Shown: positions 6,617 to 63,451 of the stretch, one piece after another
Numbering within the stretch: the stretch's first letter is position 1
Layout: the number at the start of each line of letters is the position of its first letter
Source of the DNA: Thermoanaerobaculia bacterium
GTDB lineage: Bacteria; Acidobacteriota; Thermoanaerobaculia; UBA5066
Assembly: GCA_038245905.1 (NCBI GenBank)
Contig: JBBRRY010000001.1
Location: forward strand, 1 to 64,000
Reading direction: 5' to 3'
Length of the DNA stretch: 64,000 nucleotides
The notes under the pieces: model-generated
Seen by the model: the letters and a program-made list of their open reading frames with translations, nothing else
Databases searched by the model: none
What the model was told of the DNA's origin: nothing
Made by a program: the position numbers and the translations under genes

Positions 6617-8319
6617 GACCGGCGGTCCGGCGCCGTGACCGACGGGCGCGGAAAGACCTCGACGCCGGGATCTCTTTCGAGCCCGAGAACGTCGTAGGCG
6701 GCGGCAGGGGAGATGGACGGCGGGTTCCCGACGAGGGCGTCAGAATCCCACGTGAGGCCGGCGTAGCCGGCGACGGACGCCTGCATCTTTTCGAATACGT
6801 CCCTGGGAGTCCACCGGGCGTCGAACGCGCCCCAGCGGCTGCCGAGATGCAGGAGCACCTCGAGGTCCGTGCGCACGACGGGGGGCGACACGATCGCCAT
6901 GTCGATCCGCTGCACGAGGCCCTTCGCGTTCACGAACGTGCCTTCCTTGCCCGAGAGCGCCGCGACCGGCAGGACGATGTCGGCGGCGTCCGTCAGCGCG
7001 TTGCGTTTGCGGGCATGGACGATAAGGACCGAAGCCTTGCGCAGCTCGGCGACGAAGGCAGGGTCGTTGCACTTCACGCTGAAGCTTGCGTCGGAAATGT
7101 AGAGAACTGCTGTGGAAGAAGAAAGAGAAGACGAAGATTTCTTAGAAAGGCCGGCAGCCTCGGCGCCGCGGCTGTTGGGTGCGGCCTCGCTTCCGTAAAT
7201 CCACCCGTCCACCTTGTTTCGGATGCGCCTCCTGGGCCCTTCGTCCACGGTGAACTCGGGGGTGCCCACCTTCAAAGAATCCTCAAACAGCGTTTTCAGA
7301 AGCCAGCTTTCCTCGGTAGTGTGGTTCGCCGACCCGATGACGACGATCCCGTCTTTTCTTCCCTTCGAAGCAAAATCTTCCTTCTTCTTTTCATCTCTCG
7401 CGCGGTCGATCGCGATCTTGACCGCGTCCAGCGCCTCGCCCCAGTTCGTCTGCTTGCGCGTGGCTTCGCCCGCGACGCGGATCTCGGGCTTCAGGAAATC
7501 CTGCCCGTTGAGCTCCTCGGCGCGGAGGCGGCCGTAGTCGCACATCCAGAAGTCGTTCACCGCCGGGGCGACCCGGGGGAGGAAGCGGTAGACGACGCGA
7601 TCGCGGTGCTCGATCGAGATGTTGCAGCCAATTTCGCAGCCATCGCAGACGGAACGGGTCTTGTCGAGCCACCAGACGCGCTTCCGGAACCGGAATTCCT
7701 TCGTCGTGAGAGCGCCCACCGGGCAGACGTCCGCGGTGCACGCGGAGAGGTCGTTGTCGAGCGGCTTGCCCTCGTGCGTCCAGACGAACGTGTGGCCGGC
7801 GCGCTCGATGAACGTGAGCTCGCCCGTCTCGGTGATCTCCTCGCAGAACCGGATGCAGCGCGTGCACTGGATGCAACGCGTCATGTCCGCGATCACGTGC
7901 GGGCCGATGGGCGTGCGGTCGTAGCCGGGAAACTGGCGGCGGGGCTCAGACGTGCGCGAGACCGGCAGGCCCGCGCCGAAGGCGTTGTCCTGCAGCTTGC
8001 ACTCGCCTGCCTGGTCGCAGATCGGGCAGTCGAGCGGGTGGTTGATGAGGAGGAACTCCATCGTGGCGTTACGTGCCGCGAGGGCCTTTTCGGTCGAGGC
8101 CTTGATGACCATTCCGTCGCGCACGGGGACGGTGCATGACGCCTGGATCTTCGGCACGCCTTCGACCTCGACCATGCACATGCGGCACTGGCCGACGATC
8201 GAGAGGGCCGGGTGGTAGCAGAAGTGGGGGACGTCGACGCCCGCGGCGCGGCACGCCTCGAGTGCGTTTGCGCCGTTCGGGACCTCGACGGTCTTACCGT
8301 CTACGGTTACTTTCGCCAT
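6613..8319 (-). CDS. nuoG: NADH-quinone oxidoreductase subunit G (short form, 568 aa)
   Basis: FCYH..CRMC..SC, HPLDCPICDQAGEC, CIQCTRC..CPVGAL and CDGCEIGC..MCD Fe-S motifs; molybdopterin-oxidoreductase-like C-terminus. Confidence 0.93.
   Translation of the reverse strand: MAKVTVDGKTVEVPNGANALEACRAAGVDVPHFCYHPALSIVGQCRMCMVEVEGVPKIQASCTVPVRDGMVIKASTEKALAARNATMEFLLINHPLDCPICDQAGECKLQDNAFGAGLPVSRTSEPRRQFPGYDRTPIGPHVIADMTRCIQCTRCIRFCEEITETGELTFIERAGHTFVWTHEGKPLDNDLSACTADVCPVGALTTKEFRFRKRVWWLDKTRSVCDGCEIGCNISIEHRDRVVYRFLPRVAPAVNDFWMCDYGRLRAEELNGQDFLKPEIRVAGEATRKQTNWGEALDAVKIAIDRARDEKKKEDFASKGRKDGIVVIGSANHTTEESWLLKTLFEDSLKVGTPEFTVDEGPRRRIRNKVDGWIYGSEAAPNSRGAEAAGLSKKSSSSLSSSTAVLYISDASFSVKCNDPAFVAELRKASVLIVHARKRNALTDAADIVLPVAALSGKEGTFVNAKGLVQRIDMAIVSPPVVRTDLEVLLHLGSRWGAFDARWTPRDVFEKMQASVAGYAGLTWDSDALVGNPPSISPAAAYDVLGLERDPGVEVFPRPSVTAPDRRS
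7133..7399. repeat. Cluster of AT-rich intragenic motif copies in nuoG
   Basis: CCTTTCTAAGAAATCTTC (7133-7150, -), CACCTTCAAAGAATCCTC (7267-7284, +), CCCTTCGAAGCAAAATCTTC (7361-7380, +); two are followed by pyrimidine tracts. Confidence 0.6.
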
Positions 8320-9695
8320 CAGGAATGAATTCCCGCGGCCGTGCGGTCCGCGATGGCGTTGGTCAAATCATCGGGAGCGTGCTGTTCGAACTCCGGCTTC
8401 TGGCTCTTCGCTACGTACGCCTCGAACTCCCCGCGGAACTTTGTGATGCCGGAGATGACGGGGGCGATCGCCGCGTCCGAGAAGACGCAGATCGTCATCC
8501 CGTTGCCCATCTGGTTCGAAATCTGGAGGAGGAGGTCGAGGTCGGACTTCTTCCCCTCGCCGTTCACGATGCGCCGGAGCATCTTGAGGAGCCAAGGCGT
8601 GCCTTCGCGGCAGGGCGTACATTGCCCGCAGGACTCGTGCGCGTAAAACTTCGCGATGTTCGTGACGGCCTTCGGGATGTCCGTCGTCTCGTCCATCACG
8701 ATGATCCCCGCCGACCCGAACATCGATTTCGCGGCGACGAGGCCGTCGAAGTCCATCGGGACGCCGGCGATCTCCGCCGCCGTCAGCATCGGCGCCGAGG
8801 AGCCGCCCGGAATGACGGCCTTGAGCGCGCGCCCGCCGCGGACGCCGCCGGCCAACGCGAGGAGCTGCTCCCACGGGATTCCCGTCGGGGCCTCATAGAC
8901 ACCGGGCTTCTCGACGTGTCCGGAGACGCAGTAGAGCTTCGGGCCCGTGTTCTTCTCGTTCCGGCCAATCCCCTTGAACCAGTCCGCGCCGCGGTCGACG
9001 ATGTGCTTGACGCAGGCGAGCGTCTCGACGTTGTTGACGACGGTCGGGCAGCCCCACGCGCCCTCGACGGCCGGGAAGGGCGGTTTGATGCGCGGCTGGC
9101 CGCGTTTGCCCTCGAGGCTCTCGATGAGGGCCGTCTCCTCGCCACAGATGTACGCGCCCGCGCCGCGGTGGATGGTGATCTCGAGATCCAGCCCGGAGCC
9201 GAGGACGTCTTTTCCGAGGAAGCCTTTCGCCTTGGCCTCGGCGACGGCCTTGTTCAGGATCTCCGCGCCGTGGACCATCTCGCCGCGGATATAGAGGTAA
9301 GCGTGCCTCACGTCGAGGGCGAAGCTCGCGAGCATCATTCCCTCGAGGATCTGATGCGGGTCGCTTTCCATCAGGAGGCGGTCCTTGAACGTGCCGGGCT
9401 CGGATTCGTCCGCGTTGCACAGGAGGTAGACCGGCTTGTCGCCGCGCTTCTCCTTCAGCGGGACGAACGTCCACTTCATTCCGCACGAGAAGCCGGCGCC
9501 GCCGCGCCCGCGCAGGCCCGCAACCTTGACCATCTCCGTGACCTTCGCGGGCGTCCACTCCCCGCTTCCCGCGCCCGCGAGGACCTTCTTCCACGAGGCG
9601 TAGCCCCCATCGGCGACGTATCCGTCGATTCCGCAGGATCCCGGCTTGCCGAGACGGGCGAGGAGCACGGGCGGGATCGGCTCGAGTCCGCTCAT
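8319..9695 (-). CDS. nuoF: NADH-quinone oxidoreductase subunit F
   Basis: GLRGRGGAGF, CNADESEPGTFKDR, GAGAYICGEETAL, ESCGQCTPCREG motifs. Confidence 0.97.
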   Translation of the reverse strand: MSGLEPIPPVLLARLGKPGSCGIDGYVADGGYASWKKVLAGAGSGEWTPAKVTEMVKVAGLRGRGGAGFSCGMKWTFVPLKEKRGDKPVYLLCNADESEPGTFKDRLLMESDPHQILEGMMLASFALDVRHAYLYIRGEMVHGAEILNKAVAEAKAKGFLGKDVLGSGLDLEITIHRGAGAYICGEETALIESLEGKRGQPRIKPPFPAVEGAWGCPTVVNNVETLACVKHIVDRGADWFKGIGRNEKNTGPKLYCVSGHVEKPGVYEAPTGIPWEQLLALAGGVRGGRALKAVIPGGSSAPMLTAAEIAGVPMDFDGLVAAKSMFGSAGIIVMDETTDIPKAVTNIAKFYAHESCGQCTPCREGTPWLLKMLRRIVNGEGKKSDLDLLLQISNQMGNGMTICVFSDAAIAPVISGITKFRGEFEAYVAKSQKPEFEQHAPDDLTNAIADRTAAGIHS

Positions 9696-9699
9696 CGCC

Positions 9700-10257: not shown

Positions 10258-10258
10258 A

Positions 10259-10621: not shown

Positions 10622-10628
10622 GCGGCGC

Positions 10629-10646
10629 TCGTGATACTTTTCACAA
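10629..10646. promoter_or_regulatory. Rex-type operator upstream of nuoA
   Basis: TCGTGAT-ACTT-TTCACAA versus Rex consensus TTGTGAA-N4-TTCACAA (2 mismatches); 7 nt from the nuoA ATG; minus-strand TTGACG -35 candidate at 10659-10664. Confidence 0.7.
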
Positions 10647-12515: not shown

Positions 12516-13355
12516 GTGACCGCCCCCATCCTGACCGTCGACGTGGAGGACTGGTTCCACGTGTGCGGGCATCCGCTCTATTCGGACCCCGCCACGTGGG
12601 CCGGCCGGGAAAAGCGCGTGCACGCTGGTGTCGAACGCATCCTCGCCCTCCTCGACGGCTCGGGCTCGAGGGCGACGTTCTTCGTCCTCGGCTGGATTGC
12701 GCGGCAGAGCCCGTCGCTCGTGCGGCGGATCGCCGACGCGGGCCACGAGATTGGCTGCCACGGCGACGTCCACCGCAGGGTTTTCGAGATGACGCTCCTG
12801 GAATTCCGCGAGGACGTCCGGAAGTGCCGCGAGACCCTGCAGGACGCGACGGGCCGTCCAGCGACCGCGTTCCGCGCGCCGGAGTGGTCGATGCTCCGCG
12901 CCGGCAACCCTGCGTTCGCAATCCTCGTGGAGGAAGGCTTCACGCTCGACTCCTCCCTCACGACGGCGCCACCCGTGGGAGAGATATCGAATCCCACCCG
13001 CCCCGTGATGCTCGAGACCGGCTCCGGCCCGATCCTGGAGGTCCCGCCGCTCATGGGCACGTTCTTCGGCTTCCGCGCGATGTGGGGCGGCGGCGTCTGT
13101 GCGCGCCTCACGCGCGAGAGCCGCGTCGAGGTCGCGATCGACCGGTCTCTCGCCGCCGGCGTTCCGCCGGTTCTGTATGCCCACCCATGGGAGTTCGACG
13201 ACGCGCATCCCGCCATGCCGGGCCTCTCGACCGTTCAGCGCCTCGTCCATTTCGCGGGGCGCACGCGGACGGAGGCGCGGTGGGCGCGGTTCCTGAAGCG
13301 CTGGACATTCGCGCCGATTTCGTCCGCAAGAGAGAAAGAGAGAGTTGCCGCTTGA
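12516..13355 (+). CDS. Polysaccharide deacetylase family protein (CE4, DUF3473-type)
   Basis: TVDVEDWFH, ATFFVLGW, HEIGCHG..H, FRAP, YAHPWEFD motifs. Confidence 0.9.
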   Translation: MTAPILTVDVEDWFHVCGHPLYSDPATWAGREKRVHAGVERILALLDGSGSRATFFVLGWIARQSPSLVRRIADAGHEIGCHGDVHRRVFEMTLLEFREDVRKCRETLQDATGRPATAFRAPEWSMLRAGNPAFAILVEEGFTLDSSLTTAPPVGEISNPTRPVMLETGSGPILEVPPLMGTFFGFRAMWGGGVCARLTRESRVEVAIDRSLAAGVPPVLYAHPWEFDDAHPAMPGLSTVQRLVHFAGRTRTEARWARFLKRWTFAPISSAREKERVAA

Positions 13356-14419
13356 AGGCCTCCCTCGTCGTCCGTGAGCCGTCGTCGTCCGCCTTCGCCG
13401 CGCTTTTTCCGGGTCAGCTGTCCGAGAAGCCAGGGATGGGCGAGGCCCTCGCCCGGCGGTACGAGTTCGCCTCTTCGCTCTTCGAAGAAATCTCCAAGAG
13501 GTCCGGAGTCCGGCTCGGCGACACGTTCTTTGGAGAGGGAACGAAGGACCTCCACGCCGACCTGCCCGCCCAGGTCGGCGTCTTTGCGGTCTCCCTCGCG
13601 GCGCTCGAGACCCTGCGCCGCATCCATCGGCTCGAACCCGCGGCTGCCGTCGGCTACAGCCTCGGCACGTATGCCGCGTTCGTCGCGGCCGGCTCGCTGG
13701 AAACTTGGGCCGCGCTCGACGTCGTCCTCGAGGCCGAGCGGCTCATGTCCGAAGCCGCGCGGCGAGGAGAGCTGGAAGGCGGGATGGCATACGTGATCGG
13801 CCTCGCGCGGCCCGCGGTGGAGGCGACGCTCCTCGCGCTGACACCGGATCGCGCGCGCCTCGCGGTCGCGACGGAGAATGCGGCCGCGCAGTTCGTCTTC
13901 TCGGGCGAGCGCGCGCTCGTCGCCGCGGCGGTCGATGCGTTCCGGCCGATTGCGCTGAAGACAGATTTGCTTTCGATCAGGATCCCGATGCACTCGAGCA
14001 GGCTGAGTGCGATTTGTGATCGCCTGCAAAGTTTCTTAGAGGGTGGTGTGAGGGTGAAGCAGCCGGTGTCGGCTCTCTTTGCCCCCATGCTTGGCCGCAG
14101 GGTCCGGAGCGAGGAGGACGCTCTTCATGTCCTTTCTAAGCAAATCTCTCTTCCCTCTCTCTTCGGACCTACCCTCAAGGTGATGCGTGACTCCGAGCTT
14201 CGGCGGTTCGTCGAGATCGGCCCAGGCAACGTGCTCACGAAGCTCGTCCGCTGGACGGTCCGCGACGCGAAGGTGCCCCCCGGGGCGTTAGAGGATCCGG
14301 ACTCGATCGACGCGTTTGCGAGAGAACTGGCTCCGCCTCCCCTCTTCCCCTTCAAAGAGAATCCGAAGCGGCCCTCTGCAACGGCGTCCCAGGATGCGAT
14401 CGGGTCCGAAAACAAATGA
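13352..14419 (+). CDS. FabD-like acyl-CoA:ACP acyltransferase (atypical active site)
   Basis: LFPGQ, GYSLG nucleophile motif, PMHS, FVEIGPG; TTG start overlapping the upstream stop. Confidence 0.85.
   Translation: MKASLVVREPSSSAFAALFPGQLSEKPGMGEALARRYEFASSLFEEISKRSGVRLGDTFFGEGTKDLHADLPAQVGVFAVSLAALETLRRIHRLEPAAAVGYSLGTYAAFVAAGSLETWAALDVVLEAERLMSEAARRGELEGGMAYVIGLARPAVEATLLALTPDRARLAVATENAAAQFVFSGERALVAAAVDAFRPIALKTDLLSIRIPMHSSRLSAICDRLQSFLEGGVRVKQPVSALFAPMLGRRVRSEEDALHVLSKQISLPSLFGPTLKVMRDSELRRFVEIGPGNVLTKLVRWTVRDAKVPPGALEDPDSIDAFARELAPPPLFPFKENPKRPSATASQDAIGSENK
13478..14365. repeat. Cluster of AT-rich intragenic motif copies in the FabD-like gene
   Basis: CTCTTCGAAGAAATCTCC (13478 +), GATCGAAAGCAAATCTGT (~13961-13978 -), CACCCTCTAAGAAACTTTG (14027-14045 -), CCTTTCTAAGCAAATCTCTC (14131 +), CCCCTTCAAAGAGAATCCG (14347 +). 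Confidence 0.6.
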
Positions 14420-15189
14420 ATTCTCCGAATTCTCCGGATTCTTCCGCACCGCTTCGTCAGCGCGTCGCGCTCGTCAGCGGCGCGTCGCGTGGCATCGGCC
14501 GCGCCATCGGCGAGCGCCTCGCGGCCGACGGCTACTACGCCGTCCTCACGTATCGCGCGGACGCGCCGGGGGCGGAAGCCGCCGTCCTTGCGATCCGGGC
14601 AGCCGGAGGGAGCGCCGAGGCCGCGAAAGCGGACGTGACTTCCGCGGCCGACATCGCAGCGCTCGCCGACCGTCTCGACAGGGAGCGAGGGGGCGTGGAC
14701 GTGCTCGTGAACAACGCCGCTGTCCTGAAGAACGGCCTCTTCGCGCTCATGCCCGAGGCAAGCTGGAATCTCGTGCTCGACACCGCGCTCGGCGGCACGT
14801 ACCGCATGACGAAGGCCGTGATGCGCGGGATGCTGCGGCGCCGCTGGGGCCGCATCGTGAACATCTCGTCGCTCGCGGCGTTCTCGGGGAGCGCCGGGCA
14901 GACGAATTACTCCGCCGCGAAAGGCGCTCTCGTCGCCTTCACGAAGTCGCTCGCGGCCGAGGTCGGAGCCTTCGGCGTGACCGTCAACGCGGTCGCCCCC
15001 GGGTTCGTCGAAACCGAGATGATTTCGTTCCTCACGAAGGAAGTTCGAGAGGACTTTCTGAAGCGGGTCCCGGTGCAGCGCTTCGGCCGGCCGGAGGACA
15101 TCGCCCCGTTCGTCTCGTTTCTGTGCACGGACGGCGCGGCGTACCTCACGGGCCAGACGGTACGCATCGACGGCGGCTTCGTCGGCTGA
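14416..15189 (+). CDS. fabG: 3-oxoacyl-ACP reductase (SDR)
   Basis: SGASRGIG, NNAA, YSAAK, NAVAPGFVET, TGQTVRIDGG motifs. Confidence 0.9.
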   Translation: MNSPNSPDSSAPLRQRVALVSGASRGIGRAIGERLAADGYYAVLTYRADAPGAEAAVLAIRAAGGSAEAAKADVTSAADIAALADRLDRERGGVDVLVNNAAVLKNGLFALMPEASWNLVLDTALGGTYRMTKAVMRGMLRRRWGRIVNISSLAAFSGSAGQTNYSAAKGALVAFTKSLAAEVGAFGVTVNAVAPGFVETEMISFLTKEVREDFLKRVPVQRFGRPEDIAPFVSFLCTDGAAYLTGQTVRIDGGFVG

Positions 15190-16719: not shown

Positions 16720-16808
<89 letters not shown>

Positions 16809-16826: not shown

Positions 16827-19151
16827 ATGAATTCCAATCGACTCCGTGACGCGATTCTCGAGGCGCTGAAGCCTCGGGGCTCACGCGTCCTCTCGTTCTC
16901 CGAGCTCGCCGATCGCGTCTTGCGGGCGGATCTCGATCCCGCACGCGAGGATGCCCTGCGCGCGGCCGTGGCCGAGCTGGAGCGCCGGGGCGAGATCGTG
17001 CGCATCAAGGGCGAGAAGCTCTCGCGCATCGAAAATACCGACTACGAAGCGGGCACGCTCGCGATTCGCGGTGAGGGCCGGGCGTACCTCCTTTCCCGCG
17101 TACCGGGCGCTGCCGACACGGTCGTGACGGGGCTCTCGAGCGCCCTCGACGGCGACGTCGTTCTCGTTCGGCTGGCCGCGCCGCGTGCAGCGGCGAAGGA
17201 AGCGCGGGGGCCGCGTACCCGGGAGGGCCGGCCGGCTCGCACGGAGCCACGCGCGACGGGCGTCGTCGTGAAGGTCCTCGAAAGGCGCCGCGAGACGATC
17301 GTCGGGAAGATCGTACGCGGCCCGGAGGGCGTGTTCATCGTCCCGTTCGACCGGAAGATCGACGCACGGCTCGCCGTTCCGGACGGCAAGGACATGTCGG
17401 CCCCGACGGGCATCTTCGTGGAGGCCCGCATCACGGCATATCCCGACGACCGTCGGCTCGCTCTGGCTGAGGTTTTGGGGCTGATCGGCTACGAAGGCGA
17501 CCCCGGCGTCGACGTCGAGGTCGTGGCCCGCAAGTGGGGAATTCCCCGGGTCTATCCCGAGGCCGTGATCGCCGAGGCCGAGGCCGCGAACGGGACTGTC
17601 GGGATCGACGAACGAAAGCTCCGGTCGGACTTCACTGGGCGGACGATCGTCACGATCGACGGCGAGACCGCGCGCGACTTCGACGACGCCATCGAGGCCG
17701 AGGAGCTTCCGGGCGGCGGATTCCGCATCGGCATCCACATTGCGGACGTCTCCCATTACGTCTCCATCGGCAGCGCTCTCGACGCCGAGGCGTTCGAGCG
17801 TGGCACCTCGGTCTATTTCCCCGACCGCGCGATCGCGATGCTCCCGGAGCACCTCTCGAACGACCTCTGCTCGCTGCGTCCGGACGAGGAGCGGCGAACG
17901 CTGTCGGCGGTGCTCACGCTGGACGGGAACGGCGAGACGGTGAAGAGCGACTTCTATCGCTCGCTCATCAAGAGCCGGGCGCGATTGACCTATACGGAAG
18001 TCGGGGATTTCTTAGATAGTGAAGGAGGGAGGGGCAACTCTTCCATCTCCTCCGAAGTCGGTTCGATGCTGCCCGTCGCGCGGCGCGCCGCGCAGGCGCT
18101 GCAGGCGCGGCGCGTGCGCCGGGGGTCCCTGGACTTCGACCTGCCGGACTCGGACGTGCTTCTCGGCGAGACCGGAGATGTCGTGGCGATCGTGCGCGCC
18201 GTGCGCAATTCGGCGCACCGGCTCATCGAAGAATTCATGCTGGCCGCGAACGAGGCGGTCGCGAAGCAACTCGAGCTCATCCCGACGCCGGCGCTCTACC
18301 GCGTGCACGACCGGCCGGACGAGAGCCGGCTCGCGGACATCCGGGTCGTCCTGGGTCCGCTCGGCTACGACCTTCCCGAGGACGATGAAGAGATCTCGCC
18401 GGCGACGTTTCAGGCGATCCTCGACAAGGCTCAGGGAAAGCCCGAAGAGCGCCTCGTCTCGGACCTTGTCCTCAGGGCCCAGAAGAAGGCCATCTACTCC
18501 GAGGAGTGCCGTGGGCACTACGCGCTCGCCGCGAAGCACTACTGCCATTTCACGTCTCCGATCAGGCGTTATCCGGACCTCCTCGTCCACCGCGCGCTCG
18601 TGGAATGGCTCGCCATACGCCGGCCGCCCGCGGCCGAGGACGCGGACGGCCGCACGCGCTGGTTCCACGAGGCGGCAGCGCACTGCTCGTCGCGCGAAAG
18701 GCGCGCCGAGTCGGCCGAGCGCGAGGCGGTTTCCTGGAAGAAATTCGTATTTCTGTCGTCACGCGTCGGCGAGGAGTTCTGGGCGTACGTCTCGGCCGTC
18801 GTGGGCTTCGGGCTCTTCGTGACGCTCGAGGACATCTACGTCGACGGCCTCGTCCCGATCTCGTCCCTCGGAGACGACTTCTACCGTTACGAAGAAGTCG
18901 AGCATCGCCTCGTCGGGTCCTCGACGGGACGCGTCTTCCGCCTCGGCGACCGCCTGCGCGTGAAGCTCGTGAAGGCCGACCCCGAGAAGCGCGGTCTCGA
19001 CTTCGCGCCGCTGGGCGAGAGCGGAGGCGGAGGCGGCGGAGCCCGGCGCCCATCGCGCGCCACAGACCCCCCGAAGGCGCAGAAGGGGCGCCGCCGCGGA
19101 CCGACCCGGCCGTCTCCCGCCCCTCCACGCGGACGCAAGCGGCAGCGCTGA
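16827..19151 (+). CDS. rnr: Ribonuclease R
   Basis: TIDGETARDFDDAI, HIADVSHYV, HFTSPIRRYPDL, C-terminal S1 domain and basic tail. Confidence 0.96.
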   Translation: MNSNRLRDAILEALKPRGSRVLSFSELADRVLRADLDPAREDALRAAVAELERRGEIVRIKGEKLSRIENTDYEAGTLAIRGEGRAYLLSRVPGAADTVVTGLSSALDGDVVLVRLAAPRAAAKEARGPRTREGRPARTEPRATGVVVKVLERRRETIVGKIVRGPEGVFIVPFDRKIDARLAVPDGKDMSAPTGIFVEARITAYPDDRRLALAEVLGLIGYEGDPGVDVEVVARKWGIPRVYPEAVIAEAEAANGTVGIDERKLRSDFTGRTIVTIDGETARDFDDAIEAEELPGGGFRIGIHIADVSHYVSIGSALDAEAFERGTSVYFPDRAIAMLPEHLSNDLCSLRPDEERRTLSAVLTLDGNGETVKSDFYRSLIKSRARLTYTEVGDFLDSEGGRGNSSISSEVGSMLPVARRAAQALQARRVRRGSLDFDLPDSDVLLGETGDVVAIVRAVRNSAHRLIEEFMLAANEAVAKQLELIPTPALYRVHDRPDESRLADIRVVLGPLGYDLPEDDEEISPATFQAILDKAQGKPEERLVSDLVLRAQKKAIYSEECRGHYALAAKHYCHFTSPIRRYPDLLVHRALVEWLAIRRPPAAEDADGRTRWFHEAAAHCSSRERRAESAEREAVSWKKFVFLSSRVGEEFWAYVSAVVGFGLFVTLEDIYVDGLVPISSLGDDFYRYEEVEHRLVGSSTGRVFRLGDRLRVKLVKADPEKRGLDFAPLGESGGGGGGARRPSRATDPPKAQKGRRRGPTRPSPAPPRGRKRQR

Positions 19152-21152: not shown

Positions 21153-21229
21153 CGGGACGTGGCGCAGCCTGGTAGCGTACTTGAATGGGGTTCAAGGGGT
21201 CGTGGGTTCGAATCCCACCGTCCCGACCA
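21153..21229 (+). tRNA. tRNA-Pro(GGG)
   Basis: 77 nt; CGGGACG/CGTCCCG acceptor, CTTGA-ATGGGGT-TCAAG anticodon arm, GTTCGAATC, CCA. Confidence 0.97.
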
Positions 21230-46200: not shown

Positions 46201-49200
46201 GACGAGCCGCCGGCTCTCCGAGGACGAACGGGCCTATCTCCTCGATATCGCGCGAGGGACGTGGACCTATTTCGAAAAACTCGACGGCGACGTAGACCAT
46301 GGCCTGCCGCCGGACAACTATCAAGAGGATCCGGGCCCGGCGGTCGCGCACCGGACGTCCCCGACGAACATCGGCATGGCCCTTCTGTCCACGCTTGCGG
46401 CGCACGATCTCGGGTTCCTCGCGACGGAGAAGCTGCTCGCGAGGCTCGAACGCACGATCGCGACGGTGGAAGGGCTCGAGCGCCACGAAGGACATCTGCT
46501 GAACTGGTACGACACGCAGACGCTCGCACCTCTCTTCCCGCGCTACGTGTCGACGGTCGACAGCGGCAACCTGGCCTGCGCGCTCGTCGCGCTGGCGCAG
46601 GGGCTCGTGGCGCTTTCGCGGTCGAAGAGCGAGCTGGAACCGAGGCTCGTCTCGCTCGCTGCCCGCGCGTTGGCTCTCGCGAACGGGATGCGTTTCGCCT
46701 TCCTGTACCGGGCCGACCGGCAGCTCTTCGCGATCGGGTACCGCCTGGCCGACGCGAACGGTCCGGGCGGGCTGGACGGCTCCTCCTACGACCTCCTCGC
46801 TTCGGAGGCGCGGCTCGCGAGCTTCTTCGCAATCGCCAAGGGCGACGTGCCGCAGAGCCATTGGTTCCACCTGGGCCGGCTCGTCGTGAGCGTGGAGGGG
46901 GTCCCGACGCTCGTGTCGTGGAGCGCCACGATGTTCGAGTATCTGAAACCTCTCCTCCTGACTCGCAGCTACCCCGGGACGCTGCTCCATGAATCCTGCC
47001 GCATGGTCGTGAAGCGCCAGCGTTCCTACGCGAAGTCGCGTGGCGTGGCCTGGGGAATCTCGGAGTCGGCGTACGCGATGGTCGACCGTCAAGGCACCTA
47101 CCAATACAAAGCCTTCGGCGTTCCGGGTCTCGGGCTCAAGAGAGGCCTCGGCGACGAGCTCGTCATCGCCCCGTATGCCTCGGCTCTCGCGGCGATCGTG
47201 GATCCCTCCGCCGCTGTCTCCAACCTGAGGCGGCTCGCCGACGAAGGCGCGCGCGGAGCCTGGGGCTTCTACGAGGCCGTCGATCACACGGATCGCCGCG
47301 TTTCCGCGGAAGAGCGCGACGCAGAGCCCGAGGGCCACGTCGTCAAGGCGCATTTCGCGCATCACCAGGGAATGACGCTGGTCGCCATCGCGAACGCTCT
47401 TCTGGAGGACGTGATGGTCGAGCGCTTCCACGCCGACCCCCGGGTGAAAGCCACCGAGCTGCTCCTCCAGGAGCGGGTACCGAGACAGGCCCCGATCATC
47501 GACCCGCACCCCGCGAAGGAATCCCACTCCGCGGCCCCTGTCATGGCCGTGCCGCCTCGTCGCCTCCGGTCGCCGCACACGCCCTATCCCCGCGCGCACA
47601 TTCTCGGCAACGGCGCCTACGTCTCGATCGTGACGAACGCGGGCGGAGGAGCGAGCCTCTACAAGGACCGCGCCGTCACACGGTGGCGCGAGGACCCGAC
47701 GGCGGATCCGGGCAGCCAGTTCCTCTATCTCAGGGACGTCCACTCGGGAGACGTATGGTCGGCGACGTACCAGCCGACGTGTCGCGAGGCGGACGAGTAC
47801 GTCGTCGATTTTCTGTCCGAGAAATCGGTCTTCCGGCGCCGGGACCACGAGATCGAGGCGCGTCTCGAGGTCGGCGTGTCACCCGAGGACGACGTCGAGG
47901 TCCGCAGGATCACGCTCCGGAATCGGAGCGAGCGGCCGCGTGAGATCGAGGTCACGAGCTACGCGGAGATCTCCCTCGGGACGATCGCGGAGGACATGGC
48001 GCATCCCGCATTCGGCAAGCTCTTCGTGGAGACGGCCTGGGCGGGGGAGAGTACGGCGCTGCTCGCGCACCGCCGCCCGCGCTCGCCGGGCGATCCGAAT
48101 CTCTGGGCGCTCCACGTCTTGAGTCTCGACCGCCGGATCCAGGCGCCGATCGAGTGGGAGACGGACAGGGCCCGCTTCCTGGGCCGCGGGCGTGGACCGG
48201 ACGATCCTCAGGCCCTCGACGGACGGGCCCTCTCGGGCACGACGGGCGCCGTCCTCGACCCGATCCTGAGCCTCCGGACACGCGTGCGCCTCGCTCCGGG
48301 AGGCAGCGTGCGCCTCTGTTTCGCGACGGGAGTGGCCGGCGACGAAGACCGCGCGCGGGCCCTCGCCCAGAAGTATCACGATACGGGCGCCGCCGCGCGC
48401 GCGTTCCACCTCGCGCACACCCACACGCAGATCGCGCGCGAGCACCTCGGGATCCAGGCGGACGCGGCCCAGCTCTTCGACCGCCTCGGGTCGCGCGTCT
48501 TCTTCTCCGATGCCTCCCTCCGCGAGTCGGGAGAGATCCTCGCGAAGAGTACGTTGGGCCAGAACGGCCTCTACGGCCACGGAATCTCGGGCGACCTCCC
48601 GATCGTGCTCGTCCGCATCGTCGAGTCCGACGACCTGCCCCTCGTCCTCCAGGTGCTGAAGGCGCAGGAGTACTGGCGCCTCGTCGGACTGAAGGCCGAC
48701 CTCGTCGTCCTGAACGAGCACCCCGTGAGCTACCTCGACGAGATGCACGAGCAGCTCACGACGCTCATCGACGGGGGATCGTGGTCGTCCTGGAAGGGCC
48801 GGTCCGGCGGCGTGTTCCTCCTGCGCGGCGACGGGATGCCCGATGCCGAACGCATCCTCCTCCTGACGGTCGCGCGCGCGGTCCTCTCCGGGGAGCGGGG
48901 CGAGCTCGCCGCCCAGCTCGATCGAAACACCCCGGAGCCTCCGCGCCCGCTCAAGGCGCCTCTCGTCGACGAGGGCGGCGGAAACGAGCCGGAACCGCCC
49001 GTGCCGCCGCTCGTCATGGGCAACGGGCTCGGGGGATTCTCGCCGGACGGCAAGGAGTACGTCGTCGTGCTCTCGGGCAGCGCCGAGACGCCGCTTCCAT
49101 GGGTGAACGTCATCGCGAACCCGCGCTTCGGCACGATCGTGACGACGTCGGGCGCTTCGACGACGTGGTCGGAAAACAGCCGCGAGAACCGGCTCACGCC

Positions 49201-51481
49201 GTTCGCGAACGACCCCGTTTCGGACCCCACGGCAGAGGCGATCTTCATCCGCGACGAAGAGACCGGGCGTGTCTGGGGCGCGACACCGGCCCCGGTGAAG
49301 AGGACGCCGCGATCGCCGCGCTGGATCGTGCGGCACGCGGCCGGAGTGACGCGCTTCCAACGCGCCGCGGACGGCATCGAACAGGAGCTCACGGTCTTCG
49401 TCGCGAAGGACGATCCCGTGAAGCTCTCGGTCCTCACGCTCAAGAACCGGGGGGCCAGGCCGCGCCGGCTGACGCTCCTCAGCTACACGGAATGGAGTCT
49501 CGGCCCGCCTCGGACAGGCGAGTCGCGTTTCGTCGTGAGCGAGCGGGATCCGGAGACCGGCGCCCTCCTGGCTCGAAATCCCTACAACGCGGACTTCGCG
49601 GGCCGCGTCGCCTTCGCGGCGTCGAGCGAACCGGTCGTCTCGGCGACCGGCGACCGGCTGGAAGTGCTCGGCCGCAACGGGTCCCTCGCGCGCGCGGGAG
49701 CGCTCCTACGGCTGCCGCTCGCGGGACACTTCGGGGCGGGCCTCGATCCCTGTGCCGCCATGCACGTCTCGATCCAGCTCCAGCCCGGTGAGACGCAGAA
49801 GGTCGTGTTCGTGCTCGGGCAGGCGCCGGATCTCGCCGAGGCGCGGTCCCTCGCGAAGCGGCACGCGAGCTCGGAGTCCGCCGCGCGGGAGCTACGCCAG
49901 GTGGAGGGATTCTGGGACGAGACGCTCGGGACGATCAGCGTCAAGACGCCGGACGATTCCTTCGACCTCGTCATGAATCGCTGGCTCCTGTATCAGAACC
50001 TCTCGGCCCGGATCTTCGCGCGAAGCGGCTACTACCAGGCGAGCGGGGCGTATGGGTTCCGAGACCAGCTGCAGGACGTTCTCGCGCTCGCGTGGTCGCG
50101 TCCGGATCTGGCCCGCGAGCACCTCCTCCGGGCGGCGGGCCGGCAGTTCGTCGAGGGCGACGTCCAGCACTGGTGGCATCCGCCCTCGGGCCGTGGGATC
50201 CGGACGCATTGCTCGGACGACCTCCTCTGGCTGCCCTGGGTCGCCGCCCGCTATGCGGCGGAGACAGGCGACTCCAGTATCTTCGACGAGGTCGTCCCGT
50301 TCCTGTCGGGTCCCGCGCTGGCCCCCGGAGAGGCCGAATCCTACGGGCAACCCTCCACGTCCTCCGAGACTGGCTCTCTCTTCGATCATTGCGTGCGTGC
50401 GATCGAACGCGGCCTCACGCAGGGACCGCACGGCCTTCCGCTCATAGGGACCGGCGACTGGAACGACGGATACAACCGCGTCGGGGCCGAAGGGCGCGGC
50501 GAGAGCGTGTTCGTCGGATGGCTTCTTCACGCGGCACTTTCGGACTTCGCTCCGCTCGCCGAGGCCCGGGGGGACACGGTGCGGGCGCTCAGGTACCGGA
50601 AGGAGAGGGAACGGCTCTCCGGGATGCTCGAGCTCGCCTGGGACGGAGACTGGTACCGGCGCGCGTACTTCGACGACGGGACGCCGCTCGGCTCCGCGCA
50701 GAACGACGAAGGGCGGATCGACTCCGTGGCGCAGACGTGGGCGGTCCTCTCGGGCGCCGCGCCGAGGGAGCGCGCCGAGCGGGCGATGGATGCCGTGCGG
50801 GCGCACCTCGTGAGGCGCGCGTCGCAAGTCATCCTGCTCCTGACGCCTCCATTCGATCGCACCACCCTCGACCCGGGTTACATCAAGGGTTACCTGCCCG
50901 GCATCCGGGAGAACGGCGGCCAGTACACGCACGCGGCGGAATGGGTGGTCCTCGCCCTGACGCGGCTCGGATACGGAGCCGAGGCCGTCGAAGCGTTCCA
51001 CATGCTCAACCCGATCAACCACACGCGAACGGCGGCCGAGCTCGACCGGTACAAGACGGAACCGTACGTGCTCGCCGGCGACGTCTACGACCATCCGCAG
51101 CATCGCGGGCGCGGCGGCTGGACGTGGTACACCGGAGCTGCCGGCTGGATGTATCGCGTCGGACTCGAGGGCATCCTGGGCCTGACGCCGCAGGGGAGCA
51201 CGTTCTCGGTGAACCCGTGCGTGCCGGGCTCCTGGCCGGCCTTCTCGATCTCATGGCGATTCGGCTCCGCGCGATACGAGATCGCGGTCGAGAACCCGGA
51301 GGGCCGGAGCGGCGGGGTCGCAAGCGCGGAATGCGACGGCGCGCCCGTCGATCCCGCGTCGATCCCGCTTCGCGACGACGGCCGCGTCCACCAGGTCGTC
51401 GTCCGGTTAGGGGCTAAAAAAGGGGACCCGGCAGCAGCCCGCGAATCGGAGCAGCATCGCCGTCGCGCGCTGAACCGTTAG
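43226..51481 (+). CDS. ndvB: Cyclic beta-1,2-glucan synthase (Cgs/NdvB/ChvB; GT84 plus GH94)
   Basis: 2751 aa; WERKRGK, LDSDT, LSHDLFEG, RQHRWVRGDW, central TM block, RTSPTNIG, WGISES, GDWNDG, RENGGQYTH. Confidence 0.93.
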   Translation: MRSFRDARSETAPFLDDSVGWNAPALLGEILSLETLEERATALAAHLTLARESKRSSRAHLDRLERNMERLRSAYLALADDVHRGEPLAPAGEWLLDNFHLLESESRAVRHDLPPRYYKKLPKLASREHAGTARLYAMAVELIRSGDGRLDLERLTRFLKAYQTVAPLTIGELWAWPSILKLALLENLRRLSDGLLARRRGRRAADEIRARLERGDRAVPLPKVLDPAFVAQLLSHMREFDPRLSVQRAELTTRLTEDGTTAEDAVRAEHQRLATEQASTANSITSLRLVAAMDWSRYVEGVSLIEQILQRDPAGIYGRMDFESRDLYRHAVEELADPTGEAQVRVALRVVASARRPPESPGWKERAAHVGYHLIGGGRPDLETDVAFRLPLLGRVGRALFARADGVYLSAIAFLTFLGVLVAVTPLWAGGASIRAQLAAALLVLLPASEIAIALIQRIATGLVPPRRLPRLDLSSGVPESARTMVVVPTLFSSVEGVRGLIDHLEVQALGNLDANVHFALLGDFLDAETETLPEDAGILAAARAGIEELNNRHAAGRNDRFFLFHRSRTWNAKEGLYMGWERKRGKIEEFNRLLRGATGTRYTQIVGDVAILPSVRYVLTLDSDTRLPRGTARSLIGILAHPLQQAHVDPRLRRVTEGYGILQPRVSITQSGAADSLFARVYSGHTGVDPYSRAVSDTYQDLFGEGIFTGKGLYDVDAFVASLEGRVPENALLSHDLFEGLYARTALVSDVEVVDDYPANVLAHARRQHRWVRGDWQILLWLFTFVPARHGIVRNRLPLISRWKILDNLRRSLVAPALLALFCAAWTVLPGAPLLYTLFGLTVLALPLVFALMGGSLVERGRGPVRVYVRGVLTDLAIAAAQSFLALVLLAQQAWDTVHAVTLTLVRLLVTQRRLLEWETAAAQAARAAGLLSAGARSFLAEMIASPLVAVAVVAMTLSVRPTALWLAVPFAAAWIAAPFVAFWLSRPLQATSRRLSEDERAYLLDIARGTWTYFEKLDGDVDHGLPPDNYQEDPGPAVAHRTSPTNIGMALLSTLAAHDLGFLATEKLLARLERTIATVEGLERHEGHLLNWYDTQTLAPLFPRYVSTVDSGNLACALVALAQGLVALSRSKSELEPRLVSLAARALALANGMRFAFLYRADRQLFAIGYRLADANGPGGLDGSSYDLLASEARLASFFAIAKGDVPQSHWFHLGRLVVSVEGVPTLVSWSATMFEYLKPLLLTRSYPGTLLHESCRMVVKRQRSYAKSRGVAWGISESAYAMVDRQGTYQYKAFGVPGLGLKRGLGDELVIAPYASALAAIVDPSAAVSNLRRLADEGARGAWGFYEAVDHTDRRVSAEERDAEPEGHVVKAHFAHHQGMTLVAIANALLEDVMVERFHADPRVKATELLLQERVPRQAPIIDPHPAKESHSAAPVMAVPPRRLRSPHTPYPRAHILGNGAYVSIVTNAGGGASLYKDRAVTRWREDPTADPGSQFLYLRDVHSGDVWSATYQPTCREADEYVVDFLSEKSVFRRRDHEIEARLEVGVSPEDDVEVRRITLRNRSERPREIEVTSYAEISLGTIAEDMAHPAFGKLFVETAWAGESTALLAHRRPRSPGDPNLWALHVLSLDRRIQAPIEWETDRARFLGRGRGPDDPQALDGRALSGTTGAVLDPILSLRTRVRLAPGGSVRLCFATGVAGDEDRARALAQKYHDTGAAARAFHLAHTHTQIAREHLGIQADAAQLFDRLGSRVFFSDASLRESGEILAKSTLGQNGLYGHGISGDLPIVLVRIVESDDLPLVLQVLKAQEYWRLVGLKADLVVLNEHPVSYLDEMHEQLTTLIDGGSWSSWKGRSGGVFLLRGDGMPDAERILLLTVARAVLSGERGELAAQLDRNTPEPPRPLKAPLVDEGGGNEPEPPVPPLVMGNGLGGFSPDGKEYVVVLSGSAETPLPWVNVIANPRFGTIVTTSGASTTWSENSRENRLTPFANDPVSDPTAEAIFIRDEETGRVWGATPAPVKRTPRSPRWIVRHAAGVTRFQRAADGIEQELTVFVAKDDPVKLSVLTLKNRGARPRRLTLLSYTEWSLGPPRTGESRFVVSERDPETGALLARNPYNADFAGRVAFAASSEPVVSATGDRLEVLGRNGSLARAGALLRLPLAGHFGAGLDPCAAMHVSIQLQPGETQKVVFVLGQAPDLAEARSLAKRHASSESAARELRQVEGFWDETLGTISVKTPDDSFDLVMNRWLLYQNLSARIFARSGYYQASGAYGFRDQLQDVLALAWSRPDLAREHLLRAAGRQFVEGDVQHWWHPPSGRGIRTHCSDDLLWLPWVAARYAAETGDSSIFDEVVPFLSGPALAPGEAESYGQPSTSSETGSLFDHCVRAIERGLTQGPHGLPLIGTGDWNDGYNRVGAEGRGESVFVGWLLHAALSDFAPLAEARGDTVRALRYRKERERLSGMLELAWDGDWYRRAYFDDGTPLGSAQNDEGRIDSVAQTWAVLSGAAPRERAERAMDAVRAHLVRRASQVILLLTPPFDRTTLDPGYIKGYLPGIRENGGQYTHAAEWVVLALTRLGYGAEAVEAFHMLNPINHTRTAAELDRYKTEPYVLAGDVYDHPQHRGRGGWTWYTGAAGWMYRVGLEGILGLTPQGSTFSVNPCVPGSWPAFSISWRFGSARYEIAVENPEGRSGGVASAECDGAPVDPASIPLRDDGRVHQVVVRLGAKKGDPAAARESEQHRRRALNR

Positions 51482-59878: not shown

Positions 59879-59903
59879 GCCCTCCGTTTAAGATTGGAGC
59901 CTC

Positions 59904-61556: not shown

Positions 61557-62451
61557 CCGGCCAGGTCGCGAGAGCGATTCCCGAGAAGATGAGCGCGCAG
61601 GCAACAGCGGTGCGCGGCGACGGCGATTCGCCGAGGACGGCCTTGGCGAGCGTCATGGCGACGAGGGGCTGGACGTAGATGAACATAGCCGTCGTCGCGG
61701 GGCTCGTGCGTGCGAGGGCCCAGGCGTTCAGGGAGTACGAGACGACGGTCGCGAGAATCACGCTGCCGGCGATCCCTGTCCAGGCGGTCGCCGAGAGCGC
61801 GGCGGGATGGAAGCGGAGGAGGTCGGGCATTGCGACGAGGGCTACGGGCAGGGCCGCGTACCGGAAGATCGCCGCGGTGACCCGAACGGCCGAGTGGCGC
61901 GTGAGGATTCCTTTCGCGAGGACGAGGAAGATCGAGTAGGAAAGCGCGTTGGCCAGGATGAGGGTGTTCCCGAGGAAGGTCCGGTTGCCGAAGTCGAGTC
62001 GGGACACGTCGAGCAGCCACAGAAGTCCCGCGAGGGCGACGGGAATTCCCAGGAGGCGGCGCGGCGAGGGCCGCTGCCGGGCGAGGACCGCCGCCACGGT
62101 GAGCGTCAGGATCGGCGTCATCGCGGTCAGGAGCGTGGCGTTCGTGGCGGTCGTTTTCGAGAGACCGAAGATGAAGAGGATCTGATTCGCGACGATCCCG
62201 AAGAACGACAGCACGATGAGCGTTCGTCGGTCCTTCGAGTCGAACGTTCCGCCGGGGTCGAGGATCCGCGCGAGAAGAGTCAGGACCGCCGCTCCGGCCA
62301 CCGCACGGAAGGCCGCAAGAACGAGCGGCGCCGTCTCGGCGAGCGCGAGCTTTCCGAAGATCGGGAAGCTGCCGAAGCAGAGCTGGACGACGAGGAGGGC
62401 GAGGAACGCGCGCGGATCCCGCCTGTGCGCGCCGGAGCGCTGCTCAGGCAA
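61510..62451 (-). CDS. EamA/DMT-family transporter
   Basis: 10 TM in two repeats; GLSKTTATNA, YVQPLVA..LGE. Confidence 0.9.
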   Translation of the reverse strand: MPEQRSGAHRRDPRAFLALLVVQLCFGSFPIFGKLALAETAPLVLAAFRAVAGAAVLTLLARILDPGGTFDSKDRRTLIVLSFFGIVANQILFIFGLSKTTATNATLLTAMTPILTLTVAAVLARQRPSPRRLLGIPVALAGLLWLLDVSRLDFGNRTFLGNTLILANALSYSIFLVLAKGILTRHSAVRVTAAIFRYAALPVALVAMPDLLRFHPAALSATAWTGIAGSVILATVVSYSLNAWALARTSPATTAMFIYVQPLVAMTLAKAVLGESPSPRTAVACALIFSGIALATWPARSSRAVRAGSPAHT

Positions 62452-63451
62452 GCGCAGCCGGTGCCACGAGAGCCGGAAGATTTTCTTTGAAAGGGGAAAT
62501 CGTCAACGCCATTCCTTCGCCCGCAAGCTCCCTCTTGACGTACGCGAGGGCCGTTACGCCGCCTCCCTCCGCCGGAGCGACACTCGTGAGCGACCCGGCC
62601 CTTTCACCCTCGAAGAAGACTTCGTCCCCCGGGACCGGGACGCCGCCGGAAACGGAAAGTCGGACGAGCCGCCGGTTCACGTGGCCGTATGTCTTGATGC
62701 GCGCGATCGTCTCCTGCCCGATGTAGCAGCCCTTGCTCTCGGAGATGAAGCCTCGCTCGCGGAGTCCCGCCTCGTCCGGCAGGACGGCCTCGGTCAGCTC
62801 GAAGCCCCAGCGGGGAATGCCGGCGCCGATGCGCAGGGCCTCGAGGCGGTCCGGCGATCCGGGCTCCGCCCCCGCGGAGAGAAACCCAATTCGGATTCTT
62901 TCTGAAAGGGAAGAGGGGACGCGGACGTCGTAGCCGGGGAGGCCGGTGCGGTTTTCGCGGACGATACGGAGGGACGAGACAGAGCCGCCTTCGGCGGCCC
63001 GGGGGTGTTCTTTGAAGGGGAATACGACGGCGCGATGCGCGTGCGGCGTTTCAGGCATCGCGAGGCCGCTCTCGAAGCCCACCCCCCTTCTAAGCAAATC
63101 TTCAGCGCCGCTCCCCGGCACCTCCGCCGTGAGGTGAAAGACAGCGGTAGCGGCCGTTTCATTTCCGATCGTGACGTCGTTGAAGACGAGATATTTCCGA
63201 AGCAAATCTTCTATCTTCTTCCCGAGCTCTGGCTCGCAGTTGATTTCCAGACGATCCTCCTCGCAGAGGACGACGCAGTCGGCAAGCATCTTTCCCTTCG
63301 GAGTGAGGAACGCCGCCGCGCAGCCGGTGCCCGCCGTGAGCTTCCGGATGTCGTTCGTGACGAGACCGTGCAGGAAGGACGCGCGATCCTTGCCGGTGAG
63401 GAGTACCGCGCCGCGCGCGCCGAGGTCGAAGAGGAGGGGACTACCGAGCAT
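62444..63451 (-). CDS. ygfZ: YgfZ/GcvT-like folate-binding protein
   Basis: GKDRASFLHGLVTND, LTPKGK, EALRI, KGCYIGQE signature. Confidence 0.9.
   Translation of the reverse strand: MLGSPLLFDLGARGAVLLTGKDRASFLHGLVTNDIRKLTAGTGCAAAFLTPKGKMLADCVVLCEEDRLEINCEPELGKKIEDLLRKYLVFNDVTIGNETAATAVFHLTAEVPGSGAEDLLRRGVGFESGLAMPETPHAHRAVVFPFKEHPRAAEGGSVSSLRIVRENRTGLPGYDVRVPSSLSERIRIGFLSAGAEPGSPDRLEALRIGAGIPRWGFELTEAVLPDEAGLRERGFISESKGCYIGQETIARIKTYGHVNRRLVRLSVSGGVPVPGDEVFFEGERAGSLTSVAPAEGGGVTALAYVKRELAGEGMALTISPFKENLPALVAPAALA
62475..63211. repeat. Cluster of AT-rich intragenic motif copies in ygfZ
   Basis: CCCCTTTCAAAGAAAATCTTCC (62475-62496 -), CCCTTTCAGAAAGAATCCG (62892-62910 -), CCCCTTCAAAGAACACCCC (63002-63020 -), CCCCTTCTAAGCAAATCTTC (63084-63103 +), ATTTCCGAAGCAAATCTTC (63193-63211 +). 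Confidence 0.65.

Follow-up and report, generated by a model that had tools for sequence, protein, structure and literature searches.

Over-represented DNA words that lie inside genes are, to our knowledge, known for very few systems (uptake sequences and HIP1). The DNA uptake sequences (DUS) of Neisseriaceae and the uptake signal sequences (USS) of Pasteurellaceae are words of 9 to 12 nucleotides (nt) with a density of about one per kb, while HIP1 is an 8-bp palindrome of very high density with no paired long-range arrangement. Paired dispersed repeats are known to us only from outside genes, as repetitive extragenic palindromic (REP) units and bacterial interspersed mosaic elements (BIMEs). 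Each REP unit is a GC-rich imperfect palindrome, the units form inverted doublets, and REPs and BIMEs are thought to be protein-binding, architectural, or RNA-stabilizing sites. Rickettsia palindromic elements are inserted as whole conserved elements of 100 to 150 bp. Here, we report an asymmetric word with an AT-rich core, the arm, found in hundreds of copies in the genome of a Thermoanaerobaculia bacterium (GenBank assembly GCA_038245905.1), with more than half of the copies in head-to-head pairs. The stretch of DNA analyzed (the window) comprises the first 64 kb of contig C1 (JBBRRY010000001.1, positions 1 to 64,000) and carries arms in genes for a NuoG-like protein, a FabD-like acyltransferase, an RNase R-like protein, and a YgfZ-like protein (Table 1). 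The arms share features with uptake sequences, REP/BIME elements, and Rickettsia elements and fail a defining feature of each.

The assembly (G000) has 3,797,265 bases in 113 contigs, with a G+C content of 67.8%. Genes were predicted for the whole assembly with our own codon-score caller (3,188 genes, 93% of the DNA covered), which is crude, so start codons are approximate. Searches for the word (consensus TTCNAAG(A/C)AAATCY) used a loose pattern made up of TTC-N-AAG, at most one further A or C, two to four A, and then TC and a pyrimidine; the control was the same pattern reversed and uncomplemented. An arm profile was derived from the pattern matches genome-wide, so its matches are biased toward that pattern; the control for the profile was the reversed genome. 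A codon-shuffle null was generated from 20 synonymous shuffles within genes, with each protein and its codon usage preserved. The G/A-rich reading of an arm is called R and the C/T-rich reading Y. Counts across genomes of the genus are not independent, these genomes being kin. The closest genome, G004, is syntenic and 82 to 85% identical to the window. Orthologs were aligned for ygfZ (21 from the genus and 4 from outgroups, including G030) and for nuoG (up to 22 from the genus and 8 from outgroups, including G025 and G030). Both G025 and G030 are unpublished genomes among the 16 order-level genomes without the word; statements about outgroups (word distribution, ygfZ and nuoG alignments, and GC content at third codon positions [GC3]) rest partly on them, and the other outgroups agree. 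Evidence from sequencing runs is contig-level DNA only.

The loose pattern matched 265 times genome-wide, against 12 matches of the reversed pattern. In coding DNA, there were 197 loose matches, compared with 6.0 ± 2.1 (maximum, 10) in the codon shuffles, a protein-preserving control that had been proposed in an earlier note made from the window sequence alone, and 28 matches of the strict 14-mer, compared with none. The profile recovered 372 arms of at least 10 bits (10 in the reversed genome) and 457 of at least 8 bits (25 in the reversed genome), the latter equal to about one arm per 8.3 kb (457 in 3.8 Mb). An identity between positions 14134 and 63088, pointed out in the earlier note, was confirmed; the shared 14-mer, TTCTAAGCAAATCT, has 14 copies genome-wide. 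The 19-mer given there has 3 copies at up to three mismatches, with 0.06 expected. Dinucleotide shuffles, the reversed pattern and genome, and the protein-preserving codon shuffles were all exceeded, ruling out an origin by chance or codon usage.

All 14 window positions listed in the earlier note carry the motif. Eleven of them score at least 8 bits with the genome-derived profile, and the copy at 13948 to 13988 scores 15.6 bits with the seed profile; the listing is weak at two places (14032 to 14040, 1.8 bits; 62891 to 62917, 3.5 bits). Copies were said to lie on both strands and in different frames, and the 265 pattern matches indeed divide into 97 sense, 100 antisense, and 68 spacer or gene-edge sites, with a flat distribution along genes and two frames used per strand. 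About 74% of the sites are coding; spacers hold 26% of the sites and make up 7% of the genome, a fourfold enrichment. Genes with at least four arms include those for a class I aminoacyl-tRNA synthetase, DNA polymerase III alpha (dnaE), alanine racemase (alr), and a diaminopimelate/ornithine-type decarboxylase. Arms number 23.0 per 100 kb in the least codon-typical quartile of genes and 2.1 per 100 kb in the most codon-typical one, a comparison that is partly circular, as arms themselves lower the score. An assembly artifact was ruled out because up to 22 further genus assemblies (2 to 690 contigs) carry arms in frame at the orthologous places. Separate Logan contigs cover 6000 to 7198, 12539 to 13681, and 13654 to 14520 with no difference; they come from run X1, possibly the source sample and therefore not independent evidence. 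Run X6, from a different study, holds related versions of 7160 to 7507 and 14126 to 14350. None of the contig joints listed from the sequencing runs ends inside an arm.

An arm is about 45 nt long, its core flanked by some 10 to 12 nt of pyrimidines on one side and 20 to 25 nt on the other. Pyrimidines make up 78 to 80% of the 10 nt on either side of the core, which bears out the adjoining pyrimidine tracts described earlier, and G is reduced to 1 to 15% on the Y strand. The arm is thus asymmetric, with one C/T-rich and one G/A-rich strand, a strand composition that excludes self-complementarity.

More than half of the arms stand as head-to-head pairs that bracket ordinary, unrelated sequence. 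Among neighboring pattern matches no more than 300 bp apart, the strand order was −+ in 50, ++ in 5, −− in 4, and +− in none, with about 3 to 8 of any kind expected. The profile arms gave 134 −+ pairs, compared with 8 +− pairs, and 253 of the 457 arms have a −+ partner within 400 bp. The R reading precedes the Y reading on either strand. The interval between paired arms ranges from 19 to 364 nt (mode, 60 to 90 nt); the bracketed DNA is GC-rich and unrelated among the 50 pattern pairs (interiors of 19 to 281 nt). Clusters are mostly RY (96), with RRYY (3), RRY (5), RYY (6), and YR (3) also present, and 118 of the 136 multi-arm clusters never place a Y before its R, so that arms nest like parentheses. 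On the plus strand of the window, ygfZ reads R Y and then R R Y Y (open close, open open close close), the acyltransferase gene reads Y and then R R Y Y (the nested set: open, open, close, close), and nuoG reads R Y Y, which in the gene sense is purine-rich, purine-rich, pyrimidine-rich. The clusters of the earlier note are in fact head-to-head pairs, sometimes nested, and their oriented pairing had been missed.

Of the 116 pairs scored for placement, each is confined to a single gene or spacer or crosses a single gene end or same-strand gene junction, and none lies across divergent or convergent genes; 12 of the 116 straddle a gene end, about as many as in random placement. The bracketed interiors are ordinary protein segments, and interiors made of signal peptides or membrane segments were rejected on their maximum-window hydropathy (0.61 versus 0.63). 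Two tight arm pairs fill short spacers of convergent genes (G000:C1:220559-220613 and G000:C8:26323-26416) and could be two-way terminators.

The arms are kept by selection or drive on the nucleic acid, not on the proteins, as seen from the excess over codon-shuffled sequence, the use of both strands and several frames, and the retention of AT-rich codons. Selection acting on DNA rather than protein, as first proposed, is thus well supported, with the wording widened to selection or drive. The ortholog alignments of nuoG and ygfZ, a check also proposed at that time, showed arms kept with AT-rich codons in the genus at columns that are GC-rich in outgroups. In other genus members, GC3 in arm columns was 0.55 for ygfZ and 0.45 for nuoG, versus 0.84 and 0.91 elsewhere in these genes; in outgroups, the same columns had values of 0.89 and 0.92. 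The EDLLRR arm of ygfZ keeps AT-rich codons that are rare in the genome in species whose proteins are 57 to 81% identical. The arm at 7126 to 7151 is kept in 17 of 18 aligned genus sequences, and the columns of the arm at 63198 to 63217 are GC-rich in outgroups and in the 8 genus orthologs outside the count in Table 1.

By elimination, we read the arms as paired binding sites for a lineage-specific DNA-binding factor, with a probability of about 0.38. Given that the arms look like independent copies of one consensus and that pairs show no asymmetry relative to genes, a factor that binds double-stranded DNA as two facing molecules would be the simplest reader. Such a sequence-specific factor, restricted to the genus and its sister genus, would recognize each arm separately in double-stranded form, and two of its molecules, facing each other across the bracketed DNA, would bind cooperatively. 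A protein of the architectural or nucleoid type might serve as this factor, as might a domesticated end-binding protein of the transposase type, and the system would work like REP/BIME elements but written into genes in a 93%-coding genome. A site for a nucleoid or chromosome-organizing protein, one of the roles suggested in the earlier note, is accordingly the leading reading; a segregation-polarity or regular-barrier role, also considered there, is argued against by the lack of replichore polarity and by clumped clusters (both below). In broader terms, and tentatively, the arms may form a genus-wide “bracket code,” an undescribed kind of cis-element in which an asymmetric word is point-mutated into hundreds of places, its facing pairs delimit 20 to 300 bp, and a lineage-specific machine that needs two inward-facing sites reads it. 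Local folding of the chromosome is one conceivable role for this machine; tagging of units for patch-wise repair, conversion, or exchange is another.

Several results weigh against paired binding sites. No binding protein was found: histone-fold genes (PF00808) were found in 0 of 41 genomes, no REP-associated transposase was found in G000, and no other candidate search was made. Pair spacing lacks the 10.5-bp helical phase that is usual for short protein-held loops (Rayleigh R = 0.031, p = 0.91, n = 96), and its range of 19 to 364 nt is too variable for a rigid complex. Clusters are clumped along the genome, with a coefficient of variation (CV) of 1.17 versus 0.945 ± 0.064. The tenfold rarity of arms in codon-typical genes, itself partly circular, looks more like a tolerated burden than like a placed structural element. 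Finally, a pair reads the same on both strands, so the equal gene orientations are compatible with a role in RNA.

Related mechanisms were rejected on the same data. Histone-type wrapping has no histone-fold gene to rely on, a system of REP units with a REP-associated tyrosine transposase (RAYT) lacks a Y1 gene in G000, and regular chromosomal barriers do not fit clumped clusters. Strand was compared with replication, another check of the earlier note, in the three-contig genome G020, and no polarity was seen: 88 forward and 79 reverse copies were interleaved along the contigs. With no strand switch there, a polar word of the Chi or FtsK-orienting polar sequence (KOPS) type was rejected. Pair spacing likewise had no 3-bp phase (p = 0.20).

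An element acting at the level of RNA is a rather unlikely alternative. Because the pair is symmetric, every transcript, of either strand, would carry a GA-rich arm followed by a CU-rich arm. The arms could act on the ribosome, Rho, or an RNase; alternatively, masking of the downstream arm by the upstream one could take place in mRNA and antisense RNA. The GA-rich arm resembles a Shine-Dalgarno sequence, and the CU-rich arm resembles an anti-Shine-Dalgarno or Rho-loading site. A purine-rich-first order would be natural if order in the transcript matters, and the placement of all 116 pairs, the G-poor, C/T-rich strand of some 45 nt, and the rarity of arms in the most codon-typical genes are all in keeping with this; the share of pairs straddling gene ends is near random, however, making pair placement weak support. 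In 22 of 371 arms, the R reading ends close to a predicted start codon (from 29 nt upstream of it to 12 nt inside) and resembles a ribosome-binding site. The Y reading partly resembles the 16S rRNA 3′ end and the start of the following spacer in genus relatives, and from this likeness the R reading resembles an extended Shine-Dalgarno word, but the arm profile reaches only 3.1 bits at the 16S tail, and mimicry of the 16S 3′ end was rejected on this score. In two relatives (L141:3040-3065 and L143:3040-3065), the 16S end and spacer start have a 10-letter run and the following ATCT in common with the C-variant of the arm.

Tests of pairing between the two arms count against the RNA alternative. 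Complementarity within pairs showed no excess over arms of other pairs (p = 0.74 and 0.54), 60% of anchored positions being complementary between partners, and a core variant was shared within 3 pairs, with 3.3 expected. Partners had a duplex energy of −31.4, arms of different pairs −31.6, and random local 48-mers −32.1, so arm duplexes are no stabler than random local sequence. Transition mismatches on the sense strand had no G·U bias (137 versus 119, p = 0.29), and RNAalifold on 18 nuoG orthologs gave no arm-to-arm stem and a covariation term of −0.18. A co-evolving hairpin or stem was rejected on these four counts (pair-specific complementarity, duplex stability, G·U bias, and covariation). 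Arms upstream and downstream relative to the gene score alike (p = 0.20), single arms on the sense strand are purine-rich in 176 cases and pyrimidine-rich in 174, and Rfam families at gathering score in the window were two tRNAs only, with no match to the arms.

Comparison with G004 and the outgroups bears on how the arms came about. The nuoG arms at 7265 to 7284 and 7126 to 7151 form a head-to-head pair enclosing 123 nt of native NuoG sequence, which aligns with outgroups. At the former, the genus has FEDSLKV or CKDSLKV, where the closest outgroup has FRDTLRV; at the latter, LSKK and an expandable poly-Ser run stand in place of LLDGS-type residues. Both arms are present in one genome of the sister genus and partial in the other, and neither is found in three other genera of the family or in the outgroups. 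Window arms are orthologous with those of G004 and differ by point changes; of the 16 window arm sites compared, none amounts to a clean presence/absence insertion. As these alignments show, point substitutions and small in-frame insertions create the arms where they stand, in hydrophilic and low-complexity protein parts that tolerate Ser-rich or Glu/Lys/Arg-rich peptides, and the hosts include essential genes (dnaE, an aminoacyl-tRNA synthetase gene, alr, and nuoG).

These alignments are also where an old selfish element, of the type of a MITE (miniature inverted-repeat transposable element) or a Rickettsia palindromic element, has to be considered. Under this alternative, which we regard as improbable, two-ended units were inserted in frame and only their ends are still recognizable. 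Pairs, nests, tandems, and few reversed neighbors are the pattern expected from two-ended insertion, and the inner ygfZ pair (63008 to 63028 and 63081 to 63109) brackets a lineage-specific insertion, as do some other pairs. Expandable CT/GA tracts add poly-Ser or Glu/Lys runs. Like Rickettsia elements and in-frame MITEs, arms occur in frame in housekeeping genes, at orthologous places, and add hydrophilic peptide segments, and essential-gene hosts are also known for the Rickettsia elements. Unlike them, only the two arm ends are conserved, the interiors are unrelated between copies and can be native, as in nuoG, and arms appear by substitution in alignable columns. The lack of a clean insertion relative to G004 and of a Y1 transposase in G000 also speaks against an inserted element, as does the lack of any excess of pairs 0.3 to 2 kb apart, which a full-length parent element would give. 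AT-rich codons persist, moreover, where neutral sites should have drifted to GC.

The CT tract of NuoG (window 7100 to 7150; L112 to L132) varies between species, encoding from about 3 to more than 15 Ser residues, and three genomes have a second, tandem arm beside it. Arms appear, on this sequence comparison, to be indel hot spots. Programmed frameshifting at arms was rejected; ygfZ is split into two or three frames in L020 (G006) and L022 (G008), both from assemblies of few contigs. The frame changes of G006 are in GC-rich runs (one of seven C) away from arm cores and are read as assembly indels, while the split in G008 is known from two BLAST frames alone.

The exact word is found in all 24 genomes of the genus (10 to 90 copies each; 0 control matches), whereas none of the 16 genomes sampled from two other families of the order has it. 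In a class-wide draw, it was present in 10 of 10 genomes of the genus, in 1 of 2 of the sister genus (5 copies), and in 0 of 6 other genomes of the family, these 6 spanning four other genera; outside the family, 2 of 182 genomes had single matches. Viral contigs were scanned for a 16-mer; among the matches listed, there was one per contig and none with several, and they were taken as chance. A search of genome contigs for related loci gave distant relatives only (identity of 39% or less). In sequencing runs, the window was found mainly in one sediment metagenome, with parts in soil and permafrost runs, and no RNA run was listed as carrying it.

This distribution invites comparison with uptake sequences, the other role suggested in the earlier note. 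By analogy with DUS/USS, a word of uptake or recombination drive would accumulate by preferential uptake or conversion of DNA that carries it; for the arms, we consider this quite unlikely. In common with DUS and USS, the word is lineage-specific, with a “dialect” of weaker form in the sister genus, is overprinted by substitution in genes at tolerant protein parts, in both orientations and several frames, and persists at orthologous sites; the fourfold enrichment in spacers also fits. The arms nevertheless occur about once per 8 kb, a tenfold lower density than the roughly once per kb of DUS/USS, and the unit is a tract-flanked 45 nt instead of 9 to 12 nt. Strict head-to-head order at spacings of 19 to 364 nt has no place in an uptake model. 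An orientation or gene-end bias is reported for uptake sequences (PMC2346458), and the arms lack it. The uptake-type signal of the earlier note thus accounts for lineage specificity and overprinting and leaves density and pair orientation unexplained.

With REP, BIMEs, and REPINs (doublets of REP units), the arms share a dispersal of hundreds of copies as inverted pairs, but they are asymmetric with an AT-rich core, have variable native spacers, and place 197 of 265 sites in predicted genes. A Y1/RAYT gene (PF01797) is absent from G000, unlike in REPIN systems, and is found in 3 of the 24 genus genomes. Y1 transposases (IS200/IS605 type) are common in the outgroup families (G025 to G040), with up to 9 copies in 11 of 16 genomes. 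HIP1 is likewise an intragenic, lineage-wide over-represented word kept against codon expectation, but it is an unpaired 8-bp palindrome, and arms are oriented pairs. Searches of the literature for the motif strings, in-frame palindromic repeats, and uptake sequences with inverted repeats listed nothing alike, the motif strings occurring only by chance, in two unrelated papers.

Inverted repeats of one consensus at many loci, some inside genes, are also what invertons would show, with the bracketed DNA flipped by a master recombinase that crosses over at the arms. This is very improbable. The interiors (mode, 60 to 90 nt; minimum, 19 nt) are too short for a looping flip, and the bracketed segments have a single orientation in all 21 ygfZ and 22 nuoG orthologs of the genus. 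After simulated inversion of bracketed segments, 22 of 33 genes stayed open, compared with 19.6 ± 3.0 for random segments. The probability left by the readings above goes to an explanation not yet thought of.

An uncultured sediment and soil lineage has forced a signal of some 45 nt, in oriented pairs, into core and essential coding sequence and has kept it through speciation, with codon usage and protein sequence visibly bearing the cost. Strong sequence-specific machinery is implied, and a DNA-level code is here seen in conflict with the protein code in a clean natural setting. The sharply defined word occurs in the genus and, more weakly, in one of the two sister-genus genomes sampled, and in none of six genomes from four other genera of the family, a distribution that lends itself to phylogenetic profiling for candidate readers.

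Table 1. Arms and their host genes in the window (R, G/A-rich reading; Y, C/T-rich reading)
Feature	Position	Strand	Score (bits)	Remarks
NuoG-like gene	6613..8319	−		Hosts 3 arms; Pfam Fer2_4, Fer4_Nqo3, NADH-G_4Fe-4S_3, Molybdopterin; ortholog alignments
Arm	7126..7151	− (Y reading)	18.5	Encodes LSKKSSSS; region is an insertion relative to outgroups
Arm	7265..7284	+	12.3	On conserved NuoG columns; FEDSLKV versus FRDTLRV in closest outgroup
Arm	7357..7384	+	15.6	In small lineage-specific NuoG insertion (KKEDFASKG)
Acyltransferase (FabD-like) gene	13280..14419	+		Hosts 5 arms; Pfam Acyl_transf_1
Arm	13469..13495	+ (Y)	15.8	No partner detected upstream; orthologous copy in G004
Arm	13948..13988	− (R on +)	15.6 (seed profile)	Outer opener of nested set
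Weak arm	14027..14045	− (R on +)	1.8	Inner opener; 10.7 bits at orthologous place in G004
Strong arm, LSKQIS	14125..14155	+	16.8	Inner closer; 26 core-centered letters identical in G004
Arm, PFKEN	14339..14358	+	9.9	Outer closer
RNase R-like gene	16827..19151	+		Pfam RNB, CSD2, S1
Single arm in RNase R-like gene	17997..18016	−	10.7	Diverged in G004
YgfZ/GcvT-like folate-binding gene	62444..63547	−		Hosts 6 arms; Pfam GCV_T, GCV_T_C
Strong arm, PFKENL in gene sense	62469..62499	−	19.1	
Very weak arm-like site, VFFEGE region	62599..62617	+	1.3	Stronger in other species; loose-pattern matches at this column in L005, L007, L018
Weak arm, PSSLSERI	62891..62917	−	3.5	Pyrimidine tract and AT-rich codons kept in most genus members
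Arm, PFKEH	63008..63028	−	10.1	Partner of 63081..63109
Strong arm, EDLLRR in gene sense	63081..63109	+	18.9	In 21 aligned genus orthologs; degenerate in L012
Arm, KIEDLLRK	63198..63217	+	8.5	Alignable columns; in 13/21 genus orthologs

The gene names first given to the hosts (nuoG, FabD-like, rnr, and ygfZ) fit their Pfam domains: NuoG domains, Acyl_transf_1, RNB, and GCV_T, respectively. An exact AAGCAAATCT lies on the minus strand at 13963, within the arm at 13948 to 13988. No strong copy had been seen in an accessory block at 21 to 57 kb, and none of at least 8 bits was found between 18.1 and 62.4 kb (best, 4.6 bits at 42686). A restriction of the motif to the core genome is not established by the window; with 290 clusters in 3.8 Mb, the 36-kb block should hold about 2.8, and the gap alone is not significant.

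Stretches of the window at 21 to 27, 28.8 to 32.2, 34.2 to 36.5, and 53.3 to 56.7 kb have no aligned counterpart in the syntenic region of G004, where neighboring blocks are rearranged, so part of the accessory block is truly variable. A single open frame on the plus strand (43226 to 51481; 2,751 codons) has a high coding score and 81% identity to G004. In several runs, contigs join or end loosely at 13900 to 13935, shortly before the arm at 13948; the sides of these joints are short and the runs were matched at 85% likeness, so they probably stem from other organisms. Two tRNA genes are located at 16720 to 16805 and 21153 to 21226, the second at the edge of the variable block.

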